In this document: positions 21,896 to 51,369 of the stretch, piece after piece
Numbering within the stretch: the stretch's first letter is position 1
Layout: every line of letters starts with the position of its first letter
DNA from: Eubacteriales bacterium
Lineage (GTDB): Bacteria; Bacillota; Clostridia; Oscillospirales; CAG-272
Length of the DNA: 64,000 nt
Assembly: GCA_045594785.1 (NCBI GenBank)
Contig: JAZNZE010000004.1
Coordinates: 39,254 to 103,253 of the forward strand
Direction: 5' to 3'
Made by a program: the position numbers and the translations under genes
Notes under the pieces: generated by a model
What the model was told of the DNA's origin: nothing
The model's input: the letters and a program-made list of their open reading frames with translations, nothing else
Databases searched by the model: none

Positions 21896-21943
21896 GAATT
21901 AGGAAAGTTTAATTTTATAAAATTAAGAGAGAGTAAACGAAAT

Positions 21944-22160
21944 GGGCACGCGCGATAACGAAGGTTTTTCCGAAGTTGTCGATGCGTGCCCATAATGAAT
22001 TGCCCTTATGGGCATGAATTGGCTTACGCCGTGATTTGCACCGGTGGTGCATGAATTGCCTGCGGCATTAAAAACAGGGCAATTCAATTCATGAAAACGC
22101 AGTTTTCAAATCATGAAGACGAAAGGCTTCAATTCATGACGCAAGGCGTCAATTCATTAC
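21944..22160. repeat. modular hairpin / 8-mer array A (ATGAATTG x3 direct, then CAATTCAT x3 plus one degenerate copy, each separated by short hairpins)
   Basis: Leading hairpin gggcacgc...gcgtgccc (21944-21991). ATGAATTG at 21995, 22014 and 22051. CAATTCAT at 22085, 22130 and 22150, and CAAATCAT at 22107. Intervening mini-hairpins include tgccc/gggca, gcacc/ggtgc, gaaaac/gttttc and gacgc/gcgtc. Confidence 0.8.
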
Positions 22161-27271: not shown

Positions 27272-27579
27272 GTCAAAAGCGACCTGAACGCAAGCAGGGA
27301 AAGCGCGGTGTAATTCCGCCACAACAGCCATTACCGTCAAAGTCGGAATGCCTGTCGGTCGCGATTCGGATTAAATTCCTTGGGTAAAAAGAGGGGATTC
27401 CCGGAGCTGATGGTTTATGGGTGAGTCGTAGCCGAAGAGACCGAGCAAATAAGTCTTTCTTTGGCTATAGGATTTTTCGGCTTTCGCGAGGCTGGCAGGC
27501 AGTCTTGCTTTGCCGCGTTTCCGCCTTGCCGTACTTTGCCTTTTCAGCCTTTGAGTCTCCTCGGCTCAAAGGCTTTTTA
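27272..27579 (+). promoter_or_regulatory. cobalamin (B12) riboswitch with terminator expression platform
   Basis: The aptamer core at 27279-27362 is closed by gcgacc/ggtcgc. It contains AGGGAAAGCGCGGTGTAATTCCGCC (GGGAA..GGTG.AA.TCC core) and the B12-box-like AGTCGGAATGCCTGTC. An intrinsic terminator follows at 27546-27579 (agcctttgag/ctcaaaggct + TTTTT), just upstream of the RBS of the next gene. Confidence 0.7.
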
Positions 27580-30931: not shown

Positions 30932-32809
30932 ATGAAAAACGGATTTTTGAAAATCGCTCTTATAAGCCCGCAAATTCGGGTTGCAGACCCGATATATAAC
31001 GCTGTGCTTTCTGTAAATTCGGCAAGAGAAGCCGCTGGGCAGGGGGCAAAGGTGCTTCTTTTTCCCGAGCTTACTCTTTCGGGCGCGACCTCCGGCGACC
31101 TCTTCTTTCAGTCTGCGCTTATAGAAAAGTGCTTTGCCGCACTTGAAAAATACGCTGAGGAAACCGCAGAGCTTGACCTGATAAGCTTTATCGGATTTCC
31201 TCTTAAATACGGTTCTAAGCTTTATGACGCGGTTGCCGCTGTTTCTCACGGAGAAATTCTCGGCATATCCACTCGCGAGCCTATGGGAAATGAAAGATAT
31301 TTTTCGGATTTCGGAGAGGCTGAATATATAAATCTTTTCGGTAAAGAGGTTCTTGTCGGCGAGAATATTATTTATTCGCTTTCGGGCACGGCTGCAAGGC
31401 TTTTCGTTGAGATTGGCGATAATGCTCACTTCGCAATTTCTCCTGCCGCTTATGCTGCAACCTCGGGCGCGAATATTATACTCGGTGCGATGGCTTCTCC
31501 CGAATATCTTACCCTTAAGGAGAGGGAAGAGCGCCGAATTCTCTCTGTGAGTGAGAGGCTTTCTTGCGCGTATGCGGTATGCTCTGCGTCCTCTTACGAG
31601 AGCGGAACTGACGGTGTTTATGCCGCAAGGCGCATTATATGCGAGGTTGGAGAGACCGTTTCTTCTGCGCCGCTGTTCTCTTCCGATATAGTATACGGAG
31701 TAATAGATACCGAAAAGGCTGACGCGCTGAGAAGCAGAAGAGCCGATTTTGATTCGCTTTGCCGCGAATATGCGGTTGTTGATTTTTCACTTTCGGAAGA
31801 CGTTATAAATCCTGCTCCGCCCAAGAGATTTCCGTTTATCCCCGATACCCAGGCGGAAAGGGAGGCGGCTTCCGCTCTTGCGCTTGCTATTCAGGCGCGC
31901 GCTCTTGCGGGCAGAATTGAGAGGGCAGGAGCAAAATGCTGTGTTCTTGGCGTTTCGGGCGGACTTGATTCAACGCTTGCCGTTCTTGTGTGCGAGAGAG
32001 CGATGGAGCTTCTCGGACGCGAAAAGACCGATGTTATAGCGATAACTATGCCCTGCTTTGGAACAAGCGAGCGCACTAAAGGGAATGCTTTGCTTCTTGC
32101 CGAGGAGCTTGGGCTTTCGGTACGCACTATTGATATAAAGAATGCTGTAAATCAGCATTTTGCGGATATAGGACAGGACGAAAACACCTATGACGTTGTT
32201 TATGAGAATGCGCAGGCGCGTGAGCGCACGCAGATTCTTATGGACGTTGCAAACAAGGAGGGCGGAATAGTTGTCGGAACAGGTGACCTTTCCGAGCTTG
32301 CTCTCGGCTTTGCTACCTATAACGGCGACCAGATGTCGATGTATTCGGTAAACGGCTCCGTGCCGAAAACGCTTATGCGCGAGATTATCAGATGCACGGC
32401 TAAATCTGCTTACAAAAAGGGCAGAGAAAATCTTGCAAAGGTGCTTCTTGACGTTATAGAAACGCCCGTAAGCCCCGAGCTTCTTCCCACCGAGGACGGC
32501 AAGGAAAACGCTCAGTATACGGAGACGATAGTCGGCCCTTATGAGCTTCACGACTTTTTCCTTTATTACACTGTTAAGTACGGATTCGGTGCTGAAAAGG
32601 TGAAGAGGCTTGCGCTTCTCGCATTCGGTGATAAGTACGCAGAGGACGAGGTCTCTGCTTACCTTAAAAAATTTCTTACCAGACTTGTAACTCAGCAGTT
32701 CAAACGCTCCTGTATGCCTGACGGCCCGCTTGTGACTGAAATTTCATTCTCTCCGAGAGGAAGTTTCGTAATGCCTTCAGACGCTAGCGTTGAGGCATTA
32801 CGAAGTTAA
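30932..32809 (+). CDS. nadE: glutamine-dependent NAD+ synthase
   Basis: 625 aa with an N-terminal CN-hydrolase (glutaminase) domain and a C-terminal NAD synthetase domain carrying the PP-loop VLGVSGGLDSTLA. Confidence 0.9.
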   Translation: MKNGFLKIALISPQIRVADPIYNAVLSVNSAREAAGQGAKVLLFPELTLSGATSGDLFFQSALIEKCFAALEKYAEETAELDLISFIGFPLKYGSKLYDAVAAVSHGEILGISTREPMGNERYFSDFGEAEYINLFGKEVLVGENIIYSLSGTAARLFVEIGDNAHFAISPAAYAATSGANIILGAMASPEYLTLKEREERRILSVSERLSCAYAVCSASSYESGTDGVYAARRIICEVGETVSSAPLFSSDIVYGVIDTEKADALRSRRADFDSLCREYAVVDFSLSEDVINPAPPKRFPFIPDTQAEREAASALALAIQARALAGRIERAGAKCCVLGVSGGLDSTLAVLVCERAMELLGREKTDVIAITMPCFGTSERTKGNALLLAEELGLSVRTIDIKNAVNQHFADIGQDENTYDVVYENAQARERTQILMDVANKEGGIVVGTGDLSELALGFATYNGDQMSMYSVNGSVPKTLMREIIRCTAKSAYKKGRENLAKVLLDVIETPVSPELLPTEDGKENAQYTETIVGPYELHDFFLYYTVKYGFGAEKVKRLALLAFGDKYAEDEVSAYLKKFLTRLVTQQFKRSCMPDGPLVTEISFSPRGSFVMPSDASVEALRS

Positions 32810-33170
32810 ATCCACACTAACGCGTGGAATAAATCTGCTACGCAGATGAAGTCCTCGCAAGGCTCGGATGAAGTCGCTGCGGCGATGTGTGGATTTAACA
32901 AAACCGAAACGGAGTTTCGACTTCATCTGCCAAAGGCAGACTTCATCACGAAGTGACTTCATCGTGCGTCAAAGCACGATTTCATTAAAGCTGCTTTATA
33001 GAATGAAAAAATCCACACTAACGCGTGGAATAAATCTGCTGCGCAGATGAAGTCCTCGCAAGGCTCGGATGAAGTCGCTGCGGCGATGTGTGGATTTAAC
33101 AAAACCGAAACGGAGTTTCGACTTCATCTGCCAAAGGCAGACTTCATCGTGCGTCAAAGCACGACTTCAC
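32808..33170. repeat. modular hairpin / 8-mer array B, tandemly duplicated with a 200-bp period (ATGAAGTC direct copies, then GACTTCAT inverted copies, separated by short hairpins)
   Basis: Copy 1 spans 32808-33007 and copy 2 spans 33008-33170. In copy 1, ATGAAGTC is at 32846 and 32868. GACTTCAT is at 32919, 32939 and 32955, with a degenerate copy at 32978. The flanking arms AAATCCACAC (32808) and GTGTGGATTT (32887) are complementary. Copy 2 is identical except for one loop SNP and the precise loss of one 16-nt hairpin+8-mer module. Confidence 0.9.
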
Positions 33171-33183
33171 TAAAGGAGTTTTT

Positions 33184-33525
33184 ATGAAAGAAAACAAGCT
33201 TGCGGATTTGACAATGGATTTTGCAGTAAACGCACTGCGCCTTGCAGACGAAATTGAGGGGCACTATGCTTTGAAAAATCAGTTTGAGCGTTCTGCTACA
33301 AGCATTGGGGCAAATCTTCGTGAAGCTAACTATGCTCAAAGCAATGCGGATTTTTTGTCAAAGCTGCAAATTGCTTTAAAAGAATGCTATGAAACGGAAT
33401 ATTGGCTTGAGCTTTTTGTTAGGTCTAATCTTTTGCCTGAGGATAAAGTCAAGGTTCTGATGCACGACTGCGGAGAAATCCGCCGCATTCTTGTCTCTTC
33501 TGTTAGAACACTAAAATCAAAATAA
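33184..33525 (+). CDS. four-helix-bundle protein (23S rRNA intervening-sequence protein / Avd-like family)
   Basis: 113 aa with the family pattern MDFAVNALRLADEI...LKNQFERSATSIGANLREANYAQSNADFLSKLQIALKECYETEYWLEL. AAAGGAG RBS. Confidence 0.8.
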   Translation: MKENKLADLTMDFAVNALRLADEIEGHYALKNQFERSATSIGANLREANYAQSNADFLSKLQIALKECYETEYWLELFVRSNLLPEDKVKVLMHDCGEIRRILVSSVRTLKSK

Positions 33526-33620
33526 AGTTAATAAAATACTAACGTTTTTATGTCTTTTTTGGATTTGTGTGCAATAGTAGATTTGCTAATACTTTAATAA
33601 GTGCATGTAGAGGGAAAATA

Positions 33621-49379: not shown

Positions 49380-51173
49380 ATGAAAATCACAAAAGACGTA
49401 AAATATATTGGTGTGAATGACCGAAAAATAGATTTATTTGAGGGTCAGTACGCAGTTCCGAACGGAATGGCGTATAATTCCTATGCAATTATTGACGAAA
49501 AAATTGCCATAATGGATTCGGTTGACGCAGCTTTTACGCACGAGTGGCTTGATAATATTGCGGCTGCAACCGAGGGCAGAGCTCCCGATTATCTCGTGGT
49601 GCAGCATATGGAGCCCGACCATTCCGCGAATATACTTAATTTTACCAAGGCGTATCCAAATGCGAAAATCGTTTCCTCGGTAAAGGCGTTTGGTATGATG
49701 AAGAGCTTTTTCGGAACTGATTTTGAGGACAAGCGAATAATTGTGGGCGAGGGGGATACACTTTCTCTCGGTAAGCACACTCTCAGCTTTGTCACCGCGC
49801 CTATGGTGCATTGGCCCGAGGTTATAGTTACCTATGACAGCACGGATAAAATTCTTTTCTCGGCTGACGGATTCGGAAAGTTCGGCGCGCTTGACGCTGA
49901 CGAGGACTGGGCGTGCGAGGCAAGAAGATACTATATAGGCATAGTAGGTAAATACGGCTCGCAGGTGCAGGCTCTCTTAAAGAAGGCGGCAGGACTTGAT
50001 ATCGAAATTATCTGTCCTCTCCACGGCCCTGTGCTTAAGGAAAACCTCGGATACTATATCGGCCTTTATAACACCTGGTCATCTTATCAGCCTGAGGAAG
50101 ACGGTATAGTGATTGCCTACACCTCGGTTTACGGAAACACTAAAAAGGCTGTTGATATTCTTGCCGATAAGCTCAGAGCCTCGGGCTGCCCCAAGGTTGT
50201 GGTAAACGACCTCGCAAGATGCGATATGGCAGAGGCTGTGGAGGACGCCTTCAGATATTCTAAGCTCGTTCTTGCCACGACAACCTATAATTCCGAGATA
50301 TTCCCGTTTATGCGTGAGTTCATAACCCACCTTACCGAGAGAAACTACCAGAACCGCACCGTTGCCTTTATAGAAAACGGAAGCTGGGCGCCTATGGCTG
50401 CTAAGGTTATGCGCCAGATGTTTGAGAAGTCTAAGAACATAACGTTTGCCGATAATACCGTAAAAATTATGTCTGCCTTAAATGCAGATAGCTCGGAGCA
50501 GCTTGACGCTCTTGCAGCAGAGCTTTCGCGCGAGTACGTGGCAAGGCATAGCGACACCGCAAACAAAAACGACCTTACCGCTCTCTTTAAGATTGGCTAC
50601 GGTCTGTACGTTGTTACCTCAAACGATGGAAAAAAGGATAACGGAGCAATAGTGAATACCGTAACGCAGGTTACGAATACTCCGAACAGAATTGCGGTTA
50701 CGATAAATAAGGAAAATTACTCTCACCACGTAATAAAGCAGACGGGCAAAATGAACGTCAACTGTCTGACGGTAGAAGCTCCGTTCAAGGTGTTCGAGTC
50801 GTTTGGCTTCGTTAGCGGAAGAACCGTTGATAAGTTTAAGGACTGCGAGCCGCTTCGCTCGGATAACGGACTTGTTTTCCTCCCGAGATATATAAACAGC
50901 TTTATGTCGCTTGCGGTTGAGCAGTACGTAGATCTTGGCACTCACGGAATGTTTATCTGCTCGGTCACCGAGGCAAGAGTTATTTCGGATAAGGAAACTA
51001 TGACCTATTCCTACTATCATCAGAACGTGAAGCCGAAGCCTCAGACAGAGGGCAAAAAGGGCTACGTTTGTACGATTTGCGGATATATCCACGATGAAGA
51101 AATTCTTCCCGAAGACTTTATATGCCCGTTGTGTAAGCACCCCGCTTCCGACTTCGAACCCATAAAACCGTAA
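49380..51173 (+). CDS. multidomain flavodiiron protein: metallo-beta-lactamase-like diiron + flavodoxin + flavin-reductase-like + rubredoxin domains
   Basis: Diiron motif HMEPDH, flavodoxin motif IAYTSVYGNTKK, flavin-reductase-like block GLYVVTSNDGKKDNGAIVNTVTQV, and a C-terminal rubredoxin CTICGY...CPLCKH. Confidence 0.85.
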   Translation: MKITKDVKYIGVNDRKIDLFEGQYAVPNGMAYNSYAIIDEKIAIMDSVDAAFTHEWLDNIAAATEGRAPDYLVVQHMEPDHSANILNFTKAYPNAKIVSSVKAFGMMKSFFGTDFEDKRIIVGEGDTLSLGKHTLSFVTAPMVHWPEVIVTYDSTDKILFSADGFGKFGALDADEDWACEARRYYIGIVGKYGSQVQALLKKAAGLDIEIICPLHGPVLKENLGYYIGLYNTWSSYQPEEDGIVIAYTSVYGNTKKAVDILADKLRASGCPKVVVNDLARCDMAEAVEDAFRYSKLVLATTTYNSEIFPFMREFITHLTERNYQNRTVAFIENGSWAPMAAKVMRQMFEKSKNITFADNTVKIMSALNADSSEQLDALAAELSREYVARHSDTANKNDLTALFKIGYGLYVVTSNDGKKDNGAIVNTVTQVTNTPNRIAVTINKENYSHHVIKQTGKMNVNCLTVEAPFKVFESFGFVSGRTVDKFKDCEPLRSDNGLVFLPRYINSFMSLAVEQYVDLGTHGMFICSVTEARVISDKETMTYSYYHQNVKPKPQTEGKKGYVCTICGYIHDEEILPEDFICPLCKHPASDFEPIKP

Positions 51174-51285
51174 ATTTTGGCATAATTTACCGTTTCCTCA
51201 CTCGACGTAGATTTCTACGCCTTCGTTCGTCAGCCGAAAAATTCTGCTCAAAATTTAAGGGTTTTAAGTGTAGGAGAAACGGTGA
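51174..51285. repeat. dispersed intergenic repeat family C, copy 2
   Basis: It starts at the first nt after the FDP stop. ATTTTGGCATAATTTACCGTTTCCTCACTCGACGTAGatttCTACGCCTTCGTTCGTCAGCCGAAAAATTCTGCTCAAAAT matches copy 1. The arms accgtttcctc and gaggagaaacggt are roughly complementary. Confidence 0.8.
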
Positions 51286-51310
51286 TTTAAATTTTGTTTT
51301 CGGTTTGAGT

Positions 51311-51369
51311 AAGATTTCTATGCTTTCGTTCGTCAGCTGAAAAATTCTGCTCAAAATTTAAGGGTTTTA
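51311..51369. repeat. family C, partial third copy (3' half only)
   Basis: TTTCGTTCGTCAGCTGAAAAATTCTGCTCAAAATTTAAGGGTTTTA repeats 51222-51266 almost exactly. Confidence 0.8.

Follow-up and report, generated by a model that had tools for sequence, protein, structure and literature searches.

Here we describe array B, an intergenic element at positions 32808–33170 of a 64-kb stretch of DNA from a Eubacteriales bacterium (contig JAZNZE010000004.1; the whole stretch is called the window below), together with the gene that follows it, which codes for a small four-helix-bundle (4HB) protein. Array B is a 201-bp unit present in two tandem copies, in which hairpins are spaced by an 8-nt word (8-mer); this word is ATGAAGTC in the left half, and the right half has the complementary GACTTCAT. 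By sequence comparison it is a diverged and duplicated member of the RNA family Gut-1 (Rfam RF01706). Units of the Gut-1 type are tied to 4HB genes across 46–100% protein identity and in several genomic contexts, and this link is new. At roughly even odds (about 0.5), we propose that array B is the structured, cis-acting 5' leader of a small, selfish 4HB gene cassette, similar to the intervening sequences (IVS) of 23S rRNA and inserted between nadE and pth. A second array in the window, array A, has its own linker.

Two orphans may explain each other here. Gut-1 has been in Rfam since 2010 without a function, a host organism or a genomic context, and the 4HB protein, also named S23p, has been labelled hypothetical since the 1990s despite solved structures. 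With arrays of the Gut-1 type acting as leaders of 4HB genes, both would gain a context open to experiment, namely processing by RNases, binding of proteins and insertion of cassettes into operons.

Architecture of array B

The window contains 10 copies of the word ATGAAGTC, where 1.8 would be expected, and none of 100 shuffled sequences reached this count. Nine of the 10 copies are inside array B, on the plus strand in the left halves and on the minus strand in the right halves (table 1). A tandem duplication of about 200 bp had been proposed from the sequence alone, and it is borne out by a direct repeat of 140 nt (32808–32947 and 33009–33148) with 99% identity and a period of 201 nt. The 10-bp pair proposed to close each unit is also present; this helix, P1 (GTTAAATCCACAC/GTGTGGATTTAAC), has 10 bp in unit 2 and is longer, 13 bp, in unit 1. 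The long complementarity reported between 32842–32853 and 32919–32930 is exact over 12 bp.

The same sequence-only reading had the element start at the nadE stop codon (TAA, 32807–32809) and end at the ribosome-binding site (RBS) of the 4HB gene (AAGGAG, 33173–33178; ATG at 33184). These coordinates agree with ours, but the element reaches further upstream, to a hairpin at a position that we call T0 (32765–32804). Covarying hairpins occupy the same place in homologues (GGCATTTGCC..GGCAAATGC, GGCACTTGC..GCAAGTGC and GGCATTGGC..GCCAATGC), and T0 is found in all relatives. The two units had also been said to differ only by a loop single-nucleotide polymorphism and the loss of 16 nt. Both differences exist (A/G at 32840; 32939–32954 gone from unit 2), but pairwise alignment gives eight more within the last approximately 30 nt. 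The tail of unit 1 (32986–33008) repeats, in decayed form, the RBS and opening codons of the gene that lies downstream, and is the junction mark of the tandem duplication; because of this copy, the duplicated stretch can be delimited as AAATCC...ATGAAAGAAAA.

The hairpins borrow their closing U-C...G-A from the flanking 8-mers, so that the single-stranded linker is only 5 nt long (UGAAG in the left arm, CUUCA in the right one). The left arm is composed, in order, of a local hairpin P1a, AAUAAAUC, H1, AUGAAGUC, H2, AUGAAGUC, H3 and the distal strand that pairs with the first one to give P1. Next come a conserved central hairpin and two to four modules of GACUUCAU plus hairpin, up to the RBS.

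Gut-1 affinity and the four-helix-bundle gene

Gut-1 was described in human-gut sequences as a likely non-coding RNA (Weinberg et al. 2010, PMC2864571). The text of that paper and the Rfam model present three hairpins, i.e. one arm, and state no function, second complementary arm or gene association; no later Gut-1 papers were found in the literature searched. When the flanks are read in the 2010 seed alignment, most seeds are two-armed. Examples are GUGAUAUU repeated three to four times with hairpins, followed by the centre UUGCCUGCGGCA and by AAUAUCAC repeated four times with hairpins, and also GUGAAAU with AUUUCAC. The Rfam model spans one arm only, which is half of the element. For Gut-1, a second arm, an association with a gene and a setting in a cassette appear to be undescribed.

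The window was scanned permissively with RF01706, for which the gathering cut-off is 50 bits. Array B remains below this threshold, with two matches (44.9 and 32.9 bits), both minus-strand images of the right halves, and there is no plus-strand match in it. Minus-strand matches arise because the two arms are pseudo-symmetric. Homologous units exceed the cut-off on the gene strand (52.6 bits in locus L241, 65 in L244 and 59.1 in L245). The model also matches the left arm on the plus strand in L098 and L101 (38.6 bits) and the right arm on the minus strand in L101 (32.7 bits).

Array B and Gut-1 are both made of short covarying hairpins strung on a conserved purine-rich linker (consensus GUGAAAU in Gut-1, AUGAAGU in array B), and both come from gut Clostridia-type sequences. 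Array B has the same alternation in the left arm, with at least three short hairpins on a single-stranded linker of the RUGAAAU type, and its complement in the right arm, and the compensatory hairpin changes that characterize Gut-1 are seen across 14 units of the array B type. The Gut-1 seed BAAZ01025322 is of the L245 locus type, directly upstream of a 4HB gene. Array B differs from Gut-1 in scoring below the cut-off and only as a minus-strand image, in its linker AUGAAGUC, in the enclosure of the left arm by the long helix P1 with its competing local hairpin, and in the conserved central hairpin CCGAAAC-GNA-GUUUCG. The grammar of array B itself is not new. It had been taken for unannotated, with a match to a known repeat or RNA family named as one finding that would overturn this claim; such a match exists, below threshold for the window copy and above it for homologues.

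The protein encoded downstream belongs to the family PF05635/S23p. It has more than 7000 homologues, of which hundreds are 75–88% identical; most of those listed sit on contigs no longer than a few kb. In about 12 distinct loci with 4HB proteins 76–100% identical to it, a unit lies directly upstream of the gene in all except L089. These units carry the 8-mers AUGAAGUC, AUGAAAUC, AAUAAAUC / GACUUCAU and GAUUUCAU, keep the centre and show compensatory changes in the hairpins. At 67.6% protein identity (L244), P1 is AAAUUAAUCC/GGAUUAAUUU and the linkers are AUGAAAU/AUUUCAU. At 45.6% (L245, the type of seed BAAZ01025322), a classical two-armed Gut-1 array with the 8-mer GUGAUAUU is situated between a tRNA terminator and the gene. 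A tie to the 4HB gene, which the sequence-only reading had suggested looking for, is thus strong. The gene upstream of the cassette is nadE in the window and mostly guaA-like elsewhere; L241 is in a phage-like region and L243 in a region rich in mobile-element genes. The array-less L089, which encodes the same 4HB protein as L088, was set aside as a possible chimeric assembly. In its positions 1–300 an unrelated open reading frame (ORF; …YRFNWYDDNGVEVENPDNEMW…) runs to the RBS, and the lack of an array may be either an artefact of such an assembly or genuine.

Rfam classes Gut-1 as 'Gene; sRNA' (small RNA), and each arm might be a separate trans-acting RNA, the left one transcribed rightwards and the right one leftwards. 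Matches of the model to left arms on the plus strand and right arms on the minus strand would agree with this, as would the terminator-like score of the minus-strand P1a with the T-rich tail that follows it, and the existence of solo arrays away from 4HB genes. We nevertheless consider free small RNAs improbable. In the window, the arms have no promoter-like sites beside them, the loops of the right half are GNRA on the plus strand and not on the minus strand, and this half has two G-U pairs on the plus strand with 0–1 A-C. In addition, the position of the unit is fixed relative to the 4HB RBS in about 15 loci; no promoter or terminator frames the unit of array B, and a fixed place before the RBS fits a leader better.

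Table 1. Positions of array B, the 4HB gene and related features in the window.
Feature	Positions	Strand	Description
T0-position 5' hairpin	32765–32776 / 32793–32804	+	TTCGTAATGCCT (inside nadE coding end) pairs with AGGCATTACGAA; perfect 12 bp, 16-nt loop
Insertion (array, 4HB gene and spacer), approximate	32786–33620	+	nadE abuts or overlaps pth in related genomes
Unit 1, 201 nt	32808–33008	+	Repeat, 8-mer and fold analysis; alignment, covariation
Unit 1, left domain	closed by P1 32805–32817 / 32887–32899	+	X0 AATAAATC at 32828–32835; ATGAAGTC at 32846, 32868
Unit 1, central hairpin Hc	32905–32919	+	CCGAAAC-GGA-GUUUCG
Unit 1, right half	GACTTCAT at 32919, 32939, 32955; GATTTCAT at 32978	+	
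16-nt module (8-mer and cac-gaa-gtg hairpin)	32939–32954	+	Present in unit 1, absent from unit 2 (pairwise alignment); direct GACTTCATC flanks
Decayed copy of RBS and first codons of downstream gene	32986–33008	+	TAAAGCTGCTTTATAGAATGAAAA vs TAAAGGAGTTTTTATGAAAGAAAA, 84% identity
Unit 2	33009–33172	+	P1 33009–33018 / 33088–33097; ATGAAGTC at 33047, 33069; GACTTCAT at 33120, 33140; GACTTCAC at 33163; runs into RBS
4HB gene, 113 aa	33184–33525 (with RBS 33173–33525)	+	PF05635 / TIGR02436 (97.4 bits); PDB 2RLD, E = 7e-25
Gut-1 match, sub-threshold	32915–32987	-	44.9 bits, E = 1.7e-7; image of unit 1 right half
Second Gut-1 match, sub-threshold	33116–33186	-	32.9 bits; image of unit 2 right half
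Array A, solo two-armed	21940–22160	+	Left ATGAATTG x3 and GTGATTTG; centre TTGCCTGCGGCA; right CAATTCAT x3 and CAAATCAT

Helices, strand and possible function of the proposed leader

Unit 1 folds far better than its shuffled versions on both strands (z = -5.5 on plus and -4.4 on minus). When the proposed helices are placed on 14 distinct units, 95.1% of the cells are paired, 11 of the 37 pairs have changed on both sides and none of 500 shuffles does as well; slid controls give 33–45% pairing. The 5' strand AAAUCCNNNN covaries with two partners, a distal one forming P1 (97.8% paired, three covarying pairs) and a nearby one forming P1a (92.6%, also three). The predicted minimum-energy folds switch among homologues: those of the window, L101 and L243 are closed by P1, those of L118 and L114 have P1a with zipped linkers, and that of L241 is mixed. 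The mutually exclusive folds suggested earlier are thus upheld.

It is very hard to reconcile this with array B being a neutral by-product, a piece of slippage-prone, functionless junk beside an inserted gene. Numbers of units and modules do vary between strains and tandem duplications recur, as such a by-product would predict. Compensatory changes, however, keep the helices paired among lineages with proteins 76–100% identical, and the architecture is kept down to 46% protein identity; covariation already disfavours this explanation. Nor do we retain the 'dedicated generating machinery' that had been suggested as one possibility for the arrays: hairpins kept between species with compensatory changes indicate that the modules are old and under selection, and not freshly made. 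It had further been suggested that the identity of the 8-mer be tabulated genome by genome. ATGAAGTC is common to elements of the array B type in many genomes, which makes it a property of the element lineage.

The hairpins are near-perfect Watson–Crick palindromes with about 2% G-U, symmetric between strands. A strand call from hairpin energies was uninformative, as the energies are equal, and it was replaced by counts of G-U and A-C and by loop types. Outside P1a, the plus strand of the alignment has G-U against A-C in a ratio of 14:2. Its loops are of the GNRA type in H4 (GAAA, GGAA, GAGA) and of the UNCG type in H3 (UGCG, UACG). Together with the covariation, these features favour an RNA on the gene (plus) strand that has two competing folds. 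There is a 12/12 sigma-70 promoter on the plus strand upstream of the L241 unit; in the window, no promoter-like site was seen in the stretch from nadE to the 4HB gene.

Complementary arms are present in six arrays with different 8-mers (array B, L241, array A, a solo array in L093 and two types of Gut-1 seed), and we conclude from this that the arms are coupled. In array A the 8-mers are mirrored position by position (GTGATTTG by CAAATCAT), and in L241 the linkers have changed in concert (AUGAAAUC / GAUUUCAU). Such mirroring is missing from L243, L101, L114 and some Gut-1 seeds. These contradict a nested 'ladder' of 8-mers as a proven set of helices, which was reduced to 'complementary arms'. 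Zipping of left and right arms in a register-tolerant manner is plausible.

We propose the following scheme for the cassette, which would consist of the T0 hairpin, one or two leader units and the 4HB ('S23p / IVS protein') gene, with array B transcribed on the plus strand by read-through from nadE. In the RNA, the left domain would be closed by a P1 helix of 10–15 bp and hold three short hairpins on 5-nt UGAAG linkers, followed by the central hairpin and by two to four hairpins on complementary CUUCA linkers up to the RBS. P1 would compete with the local P1a, and once P1 is opened the left and right linkers could zip into a branched double-stranded rod. The linkers being identical, zipping might occur in several registers and so tolerate the gain or loss of modules. 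By analogy with the IVS, which carry the same gene, the double-stranded segments may act in cis as an RNase III-type processing and insulating site. They may also set the 5' end and the translation of the 4HB message.

Several observations weigh against this scheme. The summed hairpin energy is the same on both strands (-343.7 and -343.5 kcal/mol), which means that structure alone leaves the strand unfixed, and P1a, with five A-C against one G-U, pairs better on the minus strand. The predicted accessibility of the RBS has no consistent pattern among the homologues folded. Nested left–right pairing is without positional covariation in this family, and several units with AUGAAAUC on the left and GACUUCAU on the right would form A.C if paired. 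There are solo arrays, such as array A, without an adjacent 4HB gene. Finally, no inverted repeat was seen between array B and the 95 nt that follow the ORF; both arms are upstream and do not bracket the ORF as the terminal inverted repeats of an IVS do, which leaves the analogy with the IVS incomplete. Sequestration of the start codon by the right-arm 8-mer was also considered and rejected, as it is not conserved and genes starting with ATGAGG or ATGCGG do not fit.

A few other sequence features of the 4HB loci were recorded. In L245 (2954–2982), a promoter-like site (TTTACA-17 nt-TATATT with a preceding TG, 10/12) overlaps the copy of GTGATATATT that is closest to the 4HB start on its upstream side, and linkers of the GTGATATT type resemble extended -10 elements. 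Inside the window 4HB ORF, the sequences GCGGATTT, close to the 5' end (33200–33210), and AAATCCGC, close to the 3' end (33476–33484), are complementary, and leader units of other genomes have AAATCCGCC as their P1 strand. The match between GCGGATTT and AAATCCGC is probably due to chance and is not conserved in L101.

The cassette between nadE and pth and its relatives

In the nearest genomes found (L008 and L009; nadE 68% and 55% identical), pth comes directly after nadE, and the array with the 4HB gene is therefore an insertion of about 810 bp. The C-terminus of the nadE product in the window (…MPSDASVEALRS*) diverges from its relatives right after MPSDAS. This new tail encodes the 3' arm of the 12-bp hairpin, whereas conserved coding sequence of nadE, TTCGTAATGCCT, supplies the 5' arm; the end of nadE has thus been rewritten by the insertion.

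Strains with an identical 4HB protein are polymorphic: L002 has a single unit in which the 16-nt module is present, and L001 has two units with the module present in the second. Across the family, there are two to four modules per right half. This supports the module as the unit of gain and loss, as had been surmised from the two window copies. Replication slippage fits the loss of the 16-nt module, since this lies between direct copies of GACTTCATC. Tandem duplications with different junctions have occurred at least three times (window and L001; L088 and L091; L093–L097). All seven ENA contigs encoding the identical 4HB protein (L001–L007) are shorter than 1.1 kb, and several have their first base within the array. 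Short-read assemblies thus seem to break at the tandem units, which would explain why nearly all contigs with this locus are below 1.1 kb. In one strain of the L106 species (L112, 6467–8740), a segment of about 2.2 kb with a helix-turn-helix gene and a 439-aa ORF separates the guaA-like gene from the leader unit, and a second copy of the last bases of guaA (GAGTGGGAATAA) and of T0 follows this segment. The site is a hot spot for insertions.

The inverted sets of 8-mers could alternatively work as DNA, as recognition or recombination ends of a mobile cassette (compare the subterminal repeats of transposons) or as hairpin-forming sites in single-stranded DNA, with the RNA structure being incidental. 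The cassette is found in unrelated contexts (after nadE, after guaA-like genes, in the phage-like region of L241 and in the mobile-element-rich region of L243), at least three tandem duplications arose independently, and the hairpins are strand-symmetric with about 2% G-U. Genes of PF05635 have been reported within cas operons (PMC3936711), and we find them in restriction and defence operons (see below). Against this, the G-U to A-C ratio of 14:2 and the GNRA and UNCG loops point to an RNA made from one strand. No target-site duplication or recombinase gene was seen beside the cassette in the window, and BLASTN of the array against plasmid and phage nucleotide collections returned no match. 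In most genomes the cassette follows guaA at the same syntenic place, which suggests vertical inheritance. We judge a DNA-level role to be unlikely.

The leader interpretation draws on the IVS of 23S rRNA. In Coxiella burnetii, two or three heptameric repeats, variable in number between strains, precede the S23p ORF, and RNase III cuts the IVS out at a terminal stem (PMC4990558). Like an IVS, the window cassette encodes a PF05635 protein, looks inserted and selfish, has short repeats of strain-variable copy number directly upstream of the ORF, and contains complementary sequences that are predicted to form double-stranded RNA. Unlike an IVS, it is located between two protein genes (nadE and pth) and not in helix 25 or 45 of the 23S rRNA gene, there being no rRNA in the window, and its repeats are 8-mers interleaved with hairpins, whereas those of the IVS are plain tandem heptamers.

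Distant 4HB genes were surveyed in a set of eight on annotated plasmids or phage contigs (L246–L253), without a matched control. The hosts are Treponema, Monoglobus, Nostoc, Bernardetia, Planktothrix, Dolichospermum, Gloeocapsa and Aulosira. All eight genes have arrays of 7–8-nt repeats at their borders. In five (Nostoc, Dolichospermum, Gloeocapsa, Aulosira and Monoglobus) the repeats form inverted brackets around the ORF, for example (CAATTCG)x4 ... (AATTGCG)x4. Planktothrix has full two-armed arrays on either side of the ORF, Treponema about 40 8-mers of the RTGAAAG type followed by a complementary run, and Bernardetia (TTAGTGA)x15–16. Several of these genes are within restriction or defence operons: hsdS-[4HB]-hsdR, helicase-[4HB]-methyltransferase and DUF1156-[4HB]-Swt1 HEPN.

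A less probable explanation, though the strongest of the competing ones, is that the pentameric 4HB protein binds the single-stranded UGAAG and/or CUUCA linkers in its own leader, and perhaps those in solo arrays too, giving autoregulated translation or an RNA–protein particle, with the complementary arm as an internal competitor. Oligomeric RNA binders such as TRAP and HutP use evenly spaced short single-stranded motifs, and Avd of the diversity-generating retroelements works with RNA and reverse transcriptase. Identical motifs evenly spaced between hairpins correspond to the layout expected for such binders, the last linker adjoins the RBS, and there is a tight link, across phyla, between 4HB genes and arrays of short repeats. 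S23p forms a toroidal homopentamer (PMC4990558), PDB entry 2RLD holds five chains, and the 4HB family is related to Avd (PMC10053308). On the other hand, the repeats vary widely among fairly similar 4HB proteins (CAATTCG, TCGTAAT, AATTCAA, TTTTAGA, ATTTACG), which fits a structural, self-complementary role better, and the window 4HB protein is, by residue count, roughly charge-neutral and not basic.

More speculatively, and with distinctly less confidence than in the leader interpretation itself, all these genes might belong to one widespread two-part system. It would comprise 4HB (S23p/Avd-like) genes and their flanking repeat arrays, and include the 23S rRNA IVS, cassettes in restriction, CRISPR and housekeeping operons, and the Gut-1 arrays. 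Register-tolerant repeat 'zippers' would cut out or insulate the inserted gene in the host transcript, or bind the pentamer; Gut-1 would be the RNA arm, and solo arrays such as array A would be derivatives that have no gene.

Array A has an HtrA-like protease gene ahead of it and a bidirectional terminator behind it. Its centre TTGCCTGCGGCA is shared with Gut-1 seeds, and it gave no Rfam Gut-1 match even at E < 10. Other solo arrays follow clpB directly in two related genomes (L093, 13900–14130; L120, 13700–13830). The one in L093 has four copies of CATAAATTG and four of CAATTYATG. Its orthologue in L120 keeps the first hairpin (GCAAGC..GCTTGC), has linkers of the CATGATGTG/CATGAAGTG type and is without the right arm. 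Linkers within one array seem to change in concert.

Other modular elements were compared with array B. REP, BIME and BOX are hairpin-rich intergenic elements, with variable numbers of modules, found at gene 3' ends in both orientations. Array B is likewise modular, hairpin-rich, intergenic and variable in module number, follows the 3' end of a gene and has units in both orientations. In REP, BIME and BOX the palindromic unit is conserved and genome-wide, whereas in array B every hairpin is different and only the 8-mer linker is conserved within the array. Hairpins all differ within and between arrays, the 64-kb window has just two arrays, and no RAYT-type transposase was seen; within these 64 kb, array B does not match the REP/BIME kind. 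The ToxI/ToxN system resembles array B in having short RNA repeats directly upstream of a small protein gene. ToxI consists of direct repeats of about 34–36 nt with no inverted arm, whereas array B has modules of 16–22 nt in two inverted sets. ToxN is an endoribonuclease, whereas the 4HB protein belongs to TIGR02436, is without such a domain and is not ToxN- or AbiE-like, which excludes it from ToxIN. A gene of the ToxN family (type III toxin) is present about 350 nt downstream of the 4HB cassette in L116 (10697–11185) and L117 (1031–1519), as a separate neighbour.

Several other candidates were discarded. For a DnaA box (ATCCACA), the strand concerned covaries to CCGCC in relatives. For an integron attC site (GTTAAAT..ATTTAAC), the core sites are in the wrong order and the motif is absent in relatives. 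There are no supporting features for parS/Noc half-sites, a k-turn or a C/D box. As for CRISPR, the repeats have just 8 nt and the 'spacers' are conserved hairpins.

Among the wider searches, a scan of JGI metagenomes for the conserved centre (CCGAAACNNAGTTTCGACNTCAT) gave two matches, both due to chance and without arrays. A scan of viral contigs for GATGAAGTC..GATGAARTC gave at least 120 matches, which were judged from spacing alone to be chance (single occurrences, mostly with spans that are multiples of three, GATGAAGTC encoding Asp-Glu-Val). A generic detector of k-mer clusters applied to 1.35 Mb of nadE loci was too noisy. There were no 4HB genes in the 80 nadE loci, which therefore provide no unbiased sample of them; with a stricter two-arm detector, the loci of close Clostridia were the only ones to yield arrays.

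Two further features of the window were noted. The word AAATTTTG occurs four times, in alternating orientation, within 180 nt at 51172–51352; the region is AT-rich and this may be due to chance. On the plus strand, positions 27281–27360 contain an AdoCbl-II (cobalamin) riboswitch, with 50.7 bits against a cut-off of 36.5.

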